A stretch of 64,000 nt of DNA from Escherichia coli. GTDB taxonomy: Bacteria; Pseudomonadota; Gammaproteobacteria; Enterobacterales; Enterobacteriaceae. The stretch is from NCBI RefSeq assembly GCF_013122565.1, contig NZ_CP053258.1, one strand, 5' to 3'. Position 1 is the stretch's first letter. Each line of letters begins with the position of its first letter. Positions 5,253 through 14,402 of the stretch are shown here, in pieces. The translations under genes and the position numbers were made by a program. The notes under the pieces were generated by a model, which saw only the letters and a list, made by a program, of their open reading frames with translations, was not told the origin of the DNA and searched no databases.

Positions 5253-5579
5253 TTAACCGCCTGCGAGTTTTACCTTCATCCCTTTCGCTTCAAGCAGTGA
5301 TTTTAATAAATCACGCTTATCGCCCTGGATTTCAATAATTCCGTCTTTAACTGCTCCGCCGCAGCCGCATTTTTTCTTCAGTTCCGCTGCCAGTTTTGTC
5401 AGTTCGGCATCATCGAGATCGACACCGGTAATCAGGCAAACGCCCTTACCTTTACGTCCACTGGTCTGACGCTGAATACGCACCACTCCGTCGCCTTTAG
5501 GGCGTACAGGGGCCGCTTTGGGCTCATCAATACGCCCGGTTTCTGTTGAGTAGACCAGACGGCTGTTGGAATCACTCAT
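5253..5579 (-). CDS. yciH: SUI1/eIF1-like translation initiation factor homologue
   Basis: 108 aa [17 protein letters not shown]...; start overlaps the pyrF stop by 1 nt. Confidence 0.85.
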   Translation of the reverse strand: MSDSNSRLVYSTETGRIDEPKAAPVRPKGDGVVRIQRQTSGRKGKGVCLITGVDLDDAELTKLAAELKKKCGCGGAVKDGIIEIQGDKRDLLKSLLEAKGMKVKLAGG

Positions 5580-9728: not shown

Positions 9729-12404
9729 TTACTTCAACATATTACGAATGACATAATGCAAAATGCCGTCGTTCTGGTAGTAGGTCAACTCCGTCGCGGT
9801 GTCGATACGACAACGGCAGAGTACGACTTCCTGGCTACCATCCGCGCGCGTAAGCGTCACCGGAACCGTCGCGCCGGGTTGTAGATTTTGCAGATCGCCA
9901 ATATCAATCTTCTCTTCCCCGGTTAGCCCTAACGTTTTACGCGTTACGCCTTGCGGAAATTCCAGCGGCAGGATGCCCATGCCAATTAAATTCGAACGGT
10001 GAATTCGTTCAAACGACTCGGCAATCACCACACGAATTCCAAGCAGACGAGGACCTTTTGCCGCCCAGTCACGGCTGGAGCCTGATCCATACTCTTTCCC
10101 GGCAATCACCGCCAGCGGCGTTTGCTCCTGCTTATAGCGCATCGCAGCATCATAAATAGAGACTACGTCGCTGTCAGGTAAATGCCGCGTCATCCCCCCT
10201 TCAACGCCAGGCACCATTTCATTACGGATGCGAATATTGGCGAAGGTGCCGCGCATCATCACTTCATGGTTACCACGCCGCGAACCGTAGGAGTTAAAGT
10301 CTTTTCGCTCAACACCCCGACCTTGTAGATATCGACCCGCTGGGCTGTCGGGCTTAATACTGCCCGCCGGAGAGATATGGTCAGTGGTGACTGAATCCCC
10401 CAGCATTGCGAGGATCCGCGCACCGTGAATATCTTCCACAGGTGCTGGTGTTGCCTGCATTTCATCAAAGAAAGGCGATAAGCGAATATAGGTTGAATCC
10501 TCCTGCCAACCGTAGGTATCGGATCGTGTGACGTTAATTTCCTTCCACTCTGCTGTGCCTTCAAAAACTTCTGCGTACTCTTTACGGAACATTTCTGTGG
10601 AGACTTGTTCTACCGCACGGGCAATTTCTTGTGCCGATGGCCAGATATCTTTCAGATAAACCGGGTCGCCTTTACGATCATGACCAATAGGCTCAGCAGC
10701 CAGGTTGATATTCATATTTCCCGCCAGCGCATAGGCAACCACCAGCGGCGGCGAGGCCAGCCAGTTGGTTTTAACCAGCGGATGGATACGGCCTTCAAAG
10801 TTACGGTTGCCGGACAGCACTGCACCGACGGTTAAATCGCCTTTTTTGATTGCCGTTTCGATAGGATCGGGCAGCGGCCCAGAGTTACCAATACAGGTGG
10901 TACAACCGTATCCCACAAGGTTAAACCCCAGTTCGTCGAGATACGGTGTCAATTTCGCTTTTGCCAGATAGTCAGAAACAACTTTCGAGCCTGGTGCCAG
11001 CGACGCTTTGACCCACGGTTGCCGCTTGAGGCCAAGAGTTACGGCTTTTTTCGCCAGCAAGCCTGCAGCCATCAGCACACTTGGGTTAGAGGTGTTGGTG
11101 CACGAGGTTATCGCAGCAATGACCACAGCGCCATCCGGTAACTGATACTGATGTCCGTTCATAACATAATCGACCGGCTGGCGATCTTTATGCGTGGCAT
11201 TCACTTCCAGTTCGTTACTGGCGGCAAATGCTTTTGGTACATCGGGCAGTGCAACGCGATCCTGTGGGCGTTTTGGCCCTGCCAGGCTCGCTTCAACGTC
11301 ATTCATATCCAGTTCTAACGTACTGGTAAAAATCGGTTCATCGCCCGGGTTACGCCACATGCCCTGCGCTTTGGCATATTTTTCGACCAACTCGACCTGA
11401 TCTTCGCTGCGCCCGCTTAAACGCATGTAATCGAGGGTTACAGCATCGATTGGGAAGAAGCCACAGGTGGCACCATATTCTGGCGACATATTGGCAATGG
11501 TGGCGCGATCCGCCAACGGTAGTGAATCCAGCCCATCACCATAAAATTCGACGAATTTCCCCACCACGCCATGTTTGCGCAGCATTTGGGTAACGGTGAG
11601 AACCAGGTCTGTGGCGGTAATACCTTCACGTAATTTTCCGGTAAGTTTAAAGCCCACTACGTCCGGGATAAGCATGGAAACCGGCTGGCCTAACATTGCG
11701 GCTTCTGCTTCGATCCCCCCCACGCCCCACCCCAGCACGCCAAGGCCGTTGATCATGGTGGTGTGCGAGTCAGTACCAACGAGTGTATCCGGATAAGCAA
11801 TCCATTCACCGTCCTGCAATTCGCTCCACACTGCTTTGCCGAGATATTCGAGGTTAACCTGATGGCAAATGCCTGTGCCTGGCGGCACGACGCTAAACCG
11901 ACTGAACGCCTGCTTTCCCCATTTCAGGAACACATAACGTTCGTGGTTGCGCTCCATTTCCAGGCGTACGTTTTCTTCAAATGCCTCATCATCACCAAAA
12001 CGATCGACGGTCACCGAGTGGTCAATGACCAGGTCGACCGGTGAGAGCGGATTAACCTTTGCAGTATCGCCACCGAGGCGTTTAACCGCTTCGCGCATTG
12101 CCGCCAGATCAACAACGGCAGGTACGCCGGTAAAGTCCTGCATCAGCACCCTTGCCGGGCGGTAGGCAATTTCACGGTCAGCATGGGCATTTTTCAGCCA
12201 TCCCGCCAGCGCGTGGATATCCTCTTCGGTAACCGAGTTACCATCCTGCCAGCGCAGCAGGTTTTCGAGCAAAACTTTGAGTGACTTGGGCAGACGGGTG
12301 ATATCGCCCAGTGATTTGGCAGCAAGCGGCAGGCTGTAGTAGTGGTAAGTTTTATCTTTGGCCTGCAACGTGTCCTTACTGGCTTCTCGTAGGGTTGACG
12401 ACAT
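9729..12404 (-). CDS. acnA: Aconitate hydratase A
   Basis: 891 aa; aconitase-family Fe-S protein recognised along the full length. Confidence 0.95.
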
Positions 12405-12776
12405 AGCTCCTCCTTAATGACAGGGTTGCGAAGCCCTGATTCTCTTCAGGGTGAGTATTAAAGATAACACAAACATCGCGTAACGATTTGATAACAACCC
12501 AAATTGATAAAAGAGGAGAAACCTTGTGGCAAAGCAAATGAAAACCCCGCCGCAGCGGGGTCAAGGATCAGTGAGTAATGATCCAGAGGAGTTCGGCCCA
12601 GAAGAGCATCGACAGAGAAAATGCACCCATCCAGGACCAATATTTCATATTTGTGTTGATCATAGGCTACACCTTTAACGGTTATTACTTTGTGTTGAGA
12701 TAACTCAACCTGTTATTGCTGTGGTGTATTAAAAGCCCTTTAATTCATTAAAAATGGGTAATAAGAATGATGATAA

Positions 12777-12965
12777 TTATTGTTTCGGCTGTTCATCTTC
12801 AGCAAACAGTTCTATAAAGGCTTGCTGCTGCGATGTTAGTTGCCAGTCGTCTGGAATAATGACGGAACATTCCCGTTTCGTTTCTGGTTCATTATCACTA
12901 TGCTGACATAATGGTGACGACTCCAGTTGCTCCTGACCGACCATAGTTATCCCCACACTTTCCAA
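12777..12965 (-). CDS. yciX: Small protein of unknown function
   Basis: 62-aa ORF in the acnA-cysB spacer, overlapping the 3' end of the ymiA ORF; recalled as a K-12 small gene, weak evidence. Confidence 0.45.
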   Translation of the reverse strand: MESVGITMVGQEQLESSPLCQHSDNEPETKRECSVIIPDDWQLTSQQQAFIELFAEDEQPKQ

Positions 12966-13075
12966 ATCAGCAGTGCGACAACCACCCAGAAAAGTGCAGA
13001 ACCAAGAAAAACCGCCAGCCAGGCTTTACGTTTTAATTCAGGATCGCGGCGGGGTTCCTGATTTCCAGAAGGCAT
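12947..13075 (-). CDS. ymiA: Small membrane protein (42 aa)
   Basis: Hand-translated minus-strand ORF MPSGNQEPRRDPELKRKAWLAVFLGSALFWVVVALLIWKVWG; single TM helix; below the ORF-track size cutoff. Confidence 0.5.
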   Translation of the reverse strand: MPSGNQEPRRDPELKRKAWLAVFLGSALFWVVVALLIWKVWG

Positions 13076-13403
13076 TGCTAACCTCATATAATCGCCATCA
13101 CTTATCAGCAAGACGTTGAACGATTGGTGTAATTAATCATACGATGAGACAAATCCTAAAGAAACTTTAGTCAAAAATCCAGCGAATTTACGAATCGTAT
13201 CCAGTGAATAATTCAATCTTTTGACCTGAAATAGATATTTGAAAACTGGAGTTTGCGAGGCGGGTAATTAGACACTACTTTACAGGTAATTTACCCTATA
13301 AATATGAGGGATAAAATATTGTGCACGATATACAAATAAGTAACAAAGAAAATATATTTCGGCACCTTCGCTACATAAAAGGTGCCGAAAATAACGCAAG
13401 AAA

Positions 13404-14402
<999 letters not shown>

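Follow-up and report, generated by a model that had tools for sequence, protein, structure and literature searches.

Two small genes between cysB and acnA of Escherichia coli very probably belong to the known ymiA-yciX-ymiC operon and meet at a conserved stop-start junction

The two small open reading frames (ORFs) that lie on the minus strand between cysB and acnA in the Escherichia coli DNA studied here are ymiA and yciX, genes that are already known and annotated, and together with a third gene they very probably represent the known E. coli small-protein operon ymiA-yciX-ymiC. The window, by which we mean the whole 64,000-nucleotide stretch of contig NZ_CP053258.1 (RefSeq assembly GCF_013122565.1) that was analyzed, had been the subject of an original prediction, made from the letters alone, which placed a pair of same-strand small ORFs in the acnA-cysB spacer; both are present there. 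The pair is not an unrecognized feature, being covered by existing annotation and by published ribosome-profiling, mass-spectrometric, GFP-localization and reporter data. The co-oriented small-protein genes are conserved; the third gene, ymiC, and the terminator that follows it had been missed.

The spacer measures 999 bp from the acnA start at 12404 to the cysB stop at 13404, topA is likewise on the minus strand, and ribA lies past acnA on the plus strand (ORF list). RefSeq places five features under the region, namely acnA, ymiC, yciX, ymiA and cysB (Table 1). Megablast located positions 12400-13420 in 5,421 of 5,426 complete E. coli genomes; searched separately, ymiA and yciX were each found in 5,404-5,408 of them, with ymiA occupying a median of one place per genome. 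The counterparts in K-12 MG1655 are b4522 (ymiA), b4523 (yciX) and b4741 (ymiC), the order cysB-ymiA-yciX-ymiC-acnA is common to both strains, and the gene boundaries agree with RefSeq. YmiA is identical to its K-12 counterpart (46/46, 100%), YciX matches at 52 of 55 residues (95%), with T20P, V29I and D51E relative to K-12 as the only substitutions, and YmiC is identical to the sequence published in PMC6001520. Seven other ORFs of 40-62 codons occur in the same spacer on both strands (ORF list), so ORF length alone is no evidence for genes; what sets ymiA and yciX apart is their conservation and their ratio of nonsynonymous to synonymous change (dN/dS).

Table 1. Positions in the window of the genes and sequence elements discussed in the text
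Feature	Positions	Strand	Basis
acnA	9729-12404	-	ORF list
Intrinsic-terminator-like hairpin GACCCCGCTGCGGCGGGGTT followed by TTCATTT, closing ymiA-yciX-ymiC	12543-12562	-	Terminator scan
ymiC CDS, 31 aa, third gene of the unit	12568-12663	-	RefSeq annotation
yciX CDS, 55 aa	12777-12944	-	RefSeq annotation, best-match coordinates
ymiA/yciX junction GGGGA-TAA-CT-ATG	12942-12954	-	Read from the sequence
ymiA CDS, 46 aa	12947-13087	-	RefSeq annotation, best-match coordinates
Invariant block GAGGTTAGCAATG, with GAGG Shine-Dalgarno-like motif and ATG of the MPSG start	13073-13085	-	Cross-species alignment
Conserved regulatory region upstream of ymiA	13088-13300	-	Cross-genus alignment, many columns more than 90% conserved
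cysB terminator, 13-bp stem then T-run, upstream boundary of the ymiA unit	13357-13390	-	Terminator scan
cysB	13404-14378	-	ORF list

Using the 54-aa longest-ORF translation of ymiA as the query, we collected 80 loci from different species that carry a YmiA ORF, so that the comparisons below take in 81 sequences, one per species, from genera that include Escherichia, Citrobacter, Enterobacter, Kosakonia, Salmonella, Leclercia, Lelliottia, Trabulsiella, Yokenella, Cedecea and Phytobacter. The gene order cysB-ymiA-yciX-(ymiC)-acnA is maintained in the 80 species. Here, as in K-12, ymiA lies immediately downstream of cysB, and cysB is found upstream of ymiA in 79/81 loci, the remaining two ending short of cysB. 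The order topA-cysB-ymiA-yciX also recurs in three distant relatives that were found through a YciX profile, where the ymiA-yciX junctions measure -1, +13 and -4 nt. By synteny, then, ymiA and yciX remain neighbors downstream of cysB across Enterobacteriaceae. Across species, dN/dS calculated by the Nei-Gojobori method was 0.12 for the YmiA core, against 1.3 and 2.5 for the same core read in two shifted frames, and 0.32 for YciX overall, with 0.63 in its N-terminal half and 0.22 in its C-terminal half; the shifted frames gave values of more than 1. Judged by these ratios, both genes are under purifying selection.

Taken with the published data, the sequence describes a single transcription unit, which begins in the conserved region upstream of ymiA, is activated via PhoQ/PhoP when Mg2+ is limiting, and stops at the hairpin after ymiC. 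A terminator scan found no terminator-like site on the minus strand between ymiA and ymiC, and the closing hairpin sits at the 3′ end of a match to Rfam family RF02079, STnc180 (12534-12736, minus strand, 199 bits). A 3′ end downstream of ymiC has been reported (PMC7815308). The third gene encodes a small membrane protein that matches NCBIfam NF041484 and Pfam PF23694 and that was detected in 65 of the 81 species; the literature describes ymiC as lying inside the yciX 3′ UTR, without its own promoter. In K-12, ribosome profiling and RNA-seq showed ymiA and ymiC to be induced at low Mg2+, a YFP reporter of the region upstream of ymiA was PhoQ-dependent when the wild type was compared with a phoQ deletion, the region just upstream of ymiC gave no PhoQ-dependent reporter activity, and GFP-YmiC was seen at the membrane (PMC11429745). 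The literature also counts yciX in the Salmonella Cpx regulon. The acnA promoter P1 may lie about 407 bp upstream of acnA, which would put it inside yciX; the literature search gave no usable position for it.

The 200 bp upstream of ymiA are conserved across genera beyond the level of synonymous sites inside genes, and they hold a -10-like TATGAT (13141-13136) and the palindrome CTAAAGTTTCTTTAG (13170-13156). No canonical PhoP box, (T/G)GTTTA-N5-(T/G)GTTTA at the -35 position, was found at the ymiA promoter, where the best sites carry 3 mismatches (13146-13162 and 13157-13173 on the minus strand). Such 3-mismatch matches number 201 in the window versus 148 expected by chance and so carry no information on this promoter; control by PhoP could be indirect. 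RNAalifold returned only a trivial 3-bp stem for the ymiA leader, with no covariation, and a candidate leader pairing of C(A/G)AT(T/C)G with CGATTG was dropped as it had no support from the same program. Polymorphisms in the cysB/ymiA intergenic region described in a silver-nanoparticle paper also occur in that paper's control populations, and they were set aside as irrelevant.

The same arrangement of terminator and genes can be read differently. The small ORFs, ymiC especially, might serve as cis-acting leaders or upstream ORFs (uORFs) that control read-through of the hairpin at 12543-12562 into acnA, which, if true, would link PhoPQ to aconitase A. The hairpin does separate ymiC from acnA, whose start follows about 140 nt later. 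Adams et al. list ymiC-acnA as a candidate uORF-dependent case in which a 3′ end lies within 200 nt on the downstream side, and probes for STnc180 saw RNAs of 500-2000 nt in Salmonella. A purely cis-acting role, however, would not need the purifying selection that acts on the amino-acid sequences of YmiA and YciX, ymiC was not detected in 16/81 species, most of which keep ymiA, yciX and acnA at the locus, and no read-through experiment was found in the literature. On balance, we regard control of acnA as an improbable purpose of these genes, and we retain the reading of ymiA, yciX and ymiC as a small-protein operon.

The reading frame of ymiA offers three possible starts, a TTG at 13111 (54 aa, the longest), an ATG at 13087 (46 aa) and an ATG at 13075 (42 aa). 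Three annotations of the gene are on record in the literature. The 42-codon form given in the original prediction runs from ATG 13075 to the stop at 12949-12947 and encodes MPSGNQEPRRDPELKRKAWLAVFLGSALFWVVVALLIWKVWG; it corresponds to the 2006 annotation, which has been superseded, the annotated protein now being the 46-aa MRLAMPSGNQEPRRDPELKRKAWLAVFLGSALFWVVVALLIWKVWG. Initiation profiling by TetRP places the start at MRLAMPSG, so that the protein begins 12 nt earlier than in the 2006 model, and the Onc112/retapamulin profiling of Weaver et al. arrives at the same 46-aa start. In addition, the tryptic peptide LAMPSGNQEPR has been published for YmiA, which means that this product did not begin at MPSG. 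Profiling and peptide together support the 46-aa form from ATG 13087.

The cross-species alignment qualifies this picture. The ATG of MPSG is found in 81/81 species within the almost invariant block GAGGTTAGCAATG, the start codon of MRLA is ATG in only 58/81, and 71/81 have a further ATG, 11 codons ahead of MPSG (MISDVDC...), where Escherichia has CTG. The 11-codon upstream extension contains no stop codon in any of the 81 species, and its dN/dS is 0.28-0.38, with a low dS of 0.34-0.5 versus 1.05 in the core. From this pattern, most other genera probably make a 53-aa YmiA, and Escherichia has probably moved to a downstream start. The Escherichia protein may have been shortened from an ancestral 53-aa form (MISDVDC...) by loss of the upstream ATG, in which case it would illustrate how the start codon of a small protein can migrate.

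At the other end of ymiA, the last Trp-Gly codons supply a Shine-Dalgarno-like GGGGA (12954-12950), which is followed by the TAA stop (12949-12947), the dinucleotide CT and the ATG of yciX (12944-12942), such that the annotated yciX start, in RefSeq as in K-12, lies 2 nt past the ymiA stop. In 79/81 species, an ATG located between -4 and +4 nt from the ymiA stop begins an ORF of 40 codons or more, with spacers of 2 nt (n=47), 1 nt (n=13), 0 nt (n=4), 3 nt (n=7), 4 nt (n=3) and -1 or -4 nt (n=5). Both exceptions are Salmonella loci, that of S. enterica subsp. diarizonae having a GTG directly after the TAA and that of arizonae carrying a deletion in yciX. Ahead of the 79 ATG codons, within the last two codons of ymiA, the tetramer is GGGG in 76 and GGAG in 3, the latter being Cedecea and Dryocola loci and one Enterobacter isolate in which YmiA ends in Trp-Ser and not in Trp-Gly. 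GGGG thus turns into GGAG together with the change from terminal Gly to Ser, and the motif behaves like a Shine-Dalgarno sequence supplied by the final codons of YmiA.

This junction replaces the overlap that the original prediction had described, in which the 42-codon ORF shares 19 nt with a 62-codon ORF that runs in another frame from TTG 12965 to 12777, and in which the shared stretch would mediate coupling. Mechanically the overlap is there: both ORFs occur in the ORF list, positions 12947-12965 belong to both, and the TTG is found at that position in Escherichia species. It hinges on that one codon, though, which is TTG in only 8/81 species, CTG in 69, GTG in 3 and ATG in 1; the annotated start is ATG 12944. 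Relative to ymiA, yciX is read in frame +2 in 52 species, in the same frame (0) in 11 and in frame +1 in 16, and this variation between genera means that an N-terminal extension of yciX overlapping ymiA cannot be conserved. The upstream member fares no better, since profiling and the peptide put its start at MRLAMP rather than at MPSG, even if the ATG of MPSG and its GAGG do not vary among the 81 species and may support some initiation. Coupling through a 19-nt overlap is accordingly very improbable. Longest-ORF calling misplaced both starts and so created the apparent overlap, which, in light of the alignment, is an artefact of that procedure. Conservation had been named as a check on the prediction: the frames are conserved and under purifying selection, but the overlap is not conserved in the 81 species.

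Even with the overlap gone, coupling of yciX to ymiA has a plausible basis in the stop-start junction itself. The two genes are on the same strand, in 79/81 species the step from stop to start is a gap of 0-4 nt or an overlap of 1 or 4 nt, and the downstream ribosome-binding site, Shine-Dalgarno-like, is inside the upstream CDS, features which make translational coupling reasonable. In such a scheme, the terminal Trp-Gly codons of ymiA (TGG GGN) would double as the yciX ribosome-binding site, and ribosomes finishing ymiA would reinitiate on yciX, so that both proteins would be made together. At the junction, no conserved RNA fold that could hide the yciX start was found, and the single-sequence fold scored z = 0.1; unmasking of a hairpin is thus unlikely, and any coupling would work by reinitiation or proximity only.

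The downstream product, YciX, is identified by its match to the K-12 protein encoded at the same place in the gene order and carries the RefSeq name “protein YciX”. It is a 55-aa soluble protein, predicted to be largely disordered, with one short conserved helix near the C-terminus, IPxSWxLTxxQQxFI, which AF2 places at residues 38-48 (mean pLDDT 68; 83-89 over residues 31-50). In the alignment, the motif reads IPxSWxL(T/S)xxQ(Q/R)xFI(D/E), and seven positions are invariant (M1, P31, W34, L36, Q40, F43 and I44). The acidity that the original prediction attributed to the 62-codon ORF holds for this allele, with a pI of 4.05 and 12 D/E versus 3 K/R, but not for the family, in which only 25/78 orthologues have a pI below 6, around a median of 8.9. 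Among 1.84 billion representative proteins, a profile search picked up only 78 relatives, mostly of 40-100 aa, and the three distant ones that were checked all lie at the same genomic position. The family is narrow, its members of examined source being from Enterobacteriaceae or at the same locus. YciX has no match in Pfam or NCBIfam; these libraries appear to hold no model for the family, for which reason the missing match is no argument against orthology. A profile search of the PDB likewise found no relative, with matches at chance level (E 0.6 or higher).

These properties leave little room for the possibility that only ymiA codes and that yciX is a non-functional ORF in the ymiA 3′ UTR or in a long acnA 5′ region. 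Several observations lean that way, namely the missing Pfam or NCBIfam family, the low AF2 confidence outside the one helix, the fast-evolving N-terminal half (dN/dS 0.63), the internal deletion in yciX of S. enterica subsp. arizonae, which implies that the ymiA-yciX pair is not indispensable, and the fact that direct detection of the YciX protein was not found in the literature surveyed. They are outweighed by a start conserved in 79/81 species, with a GTG in S. diarizonae, by an ORF that stays open over 49-59 codons despite its frame shifts relative to ymiA, by the C-terminal dN/dS of 0.22 and the seven invariant positions, and by 78 representative homologues, the three distant ones checked being at the same genomic position. 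A non-coding yciX is therefore scarcely probable, and we continue to treat it as a gene.

YmiA, for its part, is a tail-anchored inner-membrane protein whose basic N-terminus is cytoplasmic and which crosses the membrane once, by a C-terminal helix. The hydrophobic stretch AWLAVFLGSALFWVVVALLIW follows KRK, and AF2 places a helix at residues 16-45 (pLDDT 85-92), which bears out the single-helix peptide of the original prediction. The protein scores 96.8 bits against NCBIfam NF000536, the YmiA equivalog (cut-off 30), and 125.9 bits against Pfam PF22868, YmiA (cut-off 27), the latter covering residues 1-46 of 46. Together with the AF2 model, the literature supports membrane localization behind a basic cytoplasmic segment, GFP-YmiA having been observed at the cell periphery/membrane (PMC11429745). 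In the same work, deletion of ymiA had no phenotype, and overexpression of YmiA led to a prolonged lag and longer cells (PMC11429745). Targeted PRM-MS measured “YmiA (46 aa)” at 1,000-3,000 copies per cell.

As a small single-helix membrane peptide whose overexpression prolongs lag and lengthens cells, YmiA might be taken for a toxin in a module of the type I toxin-antitoxin kind and not for a regulator, a reading that is hardly credible. Type I toxins often occur in several copies or at variable loci, whereas ymiA is present in single copy at a fixed chromosomal position across many genera, and YmiA is made at 1,000-3,000 copies per cell without harm. The non-toxins MgrB, MgtS and PmrR also prolonged the lag when overexpressed (PMC11429745), and Rfam, which covers described families only, showed no antisense RNA family at ymiA.

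By analogy with MgrB, MgtS and PmrR, YmiA, with YciX as a cytosolic partner, could modulate a larger envelope or membrane protein in Mg2+ or envelope stress. A stricter version of this idea, which we offer as a tentative and rather unlikely proposal, is that YmiA and YciX depend on each other as the two parts of one module, with reinitiation fixing the ratio in which they are made, and that in this module the YciX helix would dock on the YmiA tail or on a shared target. AF2 returned no confident prediction of a YmiA-YciX complex when the two were modeled as a YmiA-(GGGGS)6-YciX fusion, for which sequences of 40 species were aligned in pairs (pTM 0.24). Seen in terms of parts, YmiA would provide the tail anchor in the membrane and YciX would be the disordered cytosolic partner, acting under PhoPQ or Cpx envelope stress. 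The surfaces that would meet are the IPxSWxLTxxQQxFI helix and either the conserved YmiA cytoplasmic tail, MPSGxxEPxRDPxLKRKAW, or a target common to both proteins.

As a discovery, the pair carries little weight, its annotation, the evidence for its translation and its regulation by PhoQ/PhoP having already been published. Its value is corrective: what evolution has kept is a stop and a start about 2 nt apart, with a ribosome-binding site drawn from the terminal Trp-Gly codons of YmiA. Besides, the strict co-occurrence of ymiA and yciX, the YciX motif and the strongly conserved promoter region provide handles for work on small proteins in Mg2+ and envelope stress.

Three known systems can be set beside this operon. 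The first is STnc180, which is filed as an sRNA in Rfam and which covers the 3′ part of the unit, where it contains the ymiC CDS, without covering ymiA or yciX; its discoverers, who observed the RNAs of 500-2000 nt on probing in Salmonella, considered it a likely processed mRNA.

The second is the group formed by MgrB, MgtS and PmrR, which resemble YmiA in their size of 50 aa or fewer, in their single transmembrane helix and in their PhoQ-dependent induction at low Mg2+. The targets of these proteins are PhoQ for MgrB, MgtA and PitA for MgtS, and LpxT for PmrR. YmiA differs from them in being encoded alongside the gene of a soluble partner and in the lack of a canonical PhoP box among the sites found at its promoter. 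The lag that follows overexpression of MgrB, MgtS or PmrR, as it does that of YmiA, comes from the same study (PMC11429745).

The third comparison concerns the arrangement of the genes themselves. Like ymiA-yciX, the pairs mgtS-mgtT and yriA-yriB consist of adjacent small ORFs in a PhoQP-dependent operon with a very tight stop-start arrangement. The latter two truly overlap out of frame, either as a stop/start overlap or over about 60%, whereas ymiA and yciX stand 2 nt apart in E. coli and between -4 and +4 nt elsewhere.

In Escherichia coli, the two small ORFs that the original prediction placed between acnA and cysB are ymiA and yciX, the leading members of a ymiA-yciX-ymiC operon on the minus strand, and they have diverged at very different rates. 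Relative to the window, 3,927 E. coli genomes carry a ymiA with 99% identity or more, while yciX reaches 99% in no genome and falls between 95 and 99% in 5,414. The same holds between Escherichia species, where YciX identity is 67-80% versus 96-98% for YmiA; therefore, yciX is evolving much faster than its neighbor. Within Salmonella enterica, an internal deletion in yciX of subsp. arizonae (locus L047, about 2660-2760) leaves only short fragments, and in subsp. diarizonae (locus L034, about 2224-2397) the gene is intact, with a GTG start immediately after the ymiA TAA. Separately, 6 of the 5,451 places matching this chromosomal region in complete E. coli assemblies lie in records labelled as plasmids, which could be mislabelled replicons or captured chromosomal segments.

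The third member, ymiC, was absent from the original prediction. A match to the Rfam family STnc180, filed as an sRNA, spans ymiC together with the terminator; what this family models is thus not an independent sRNA but the 3' portion of an mRNA, coding sequence included. Across the 81 species compared, ymiC was undetected in 16, comprising the Citrobacter freundii group and Pseudescherichia (loci listed: L041-L045, L050, L051, L057, L058, L061, L064, L067, L069, L072, and L074; also L011 and L020). Since all 16 nevertheless keep both ymiA and yciX, and acnA is missing only where one locus is truncated, no other gene of the unit is as dispensable as ymiC.

Features of the ymiA-yciX-ymiC region (window coordinates)
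Feature	Position	Strand	Remark
ymiA	12947-13087	-	
yciX	12777-12944	-	
ymiC	12568-12663	-	31-aa membrane protein, between yciX and acnA
STnc180 match (RF02079)	12534-12736	-	199 bits
Upstream codons of ymiA	13106-13111	-	CTG 11 codon positions 5' of the MPSG Met, and the TTG before it
Conserved region 5' of ymiA	13088-13300	-	~200 bp
Perfect palindrome CTAAAGTTTCTTTAG	13170-13156	-	among the conserved blocks
Sigma-70-like site	12920-12891	-	inside yciX; promoter scan
acnA P1, presumed location	about 12800-12925	-	3' part of yciX

Comparison of the window with loci L006-L081 from related species revealed an ATG 11 codons before the MPSG Met of YmiA in 71 of 81 species, which would yield a 53-aa protein beginning MISDVDCMRLAMPSG. 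Escherichia, by contrast, carries CTG at this position and TTG one codon further upstream, suggesting that the YmiA start has moved downstream in this genus. The intervening 11-codon stretch contains a stop codon in no species, and its dN/dS is ~0.3, with low dS.

An alignment of 78 loci showed that the region 5' of ymiA is more conserved across genera than synonymous sites in the genes of this unit. Besides the palindrome, its conserved blocks include GTCAAAAGATTGAAT and GTAAATTCxCTGGATTTT. PhoP, CpxR, and YjjQ are each mentioned in the literature as candidate regulators; neither a canonical PhoP box nor a conserved RNA structure accounting for the conservation was found in this region.

Downstream, the distal acnA promoter P1 reportedly lies ~407 bp upstream of acnA (Cunningham, Gruer and Guest 1997) and, at that distance, would presumably fall within yciX, which also contains a sigma-70-like site. 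If P1 does lie there, transcription of a long acnA leader would take in ymiC as well.
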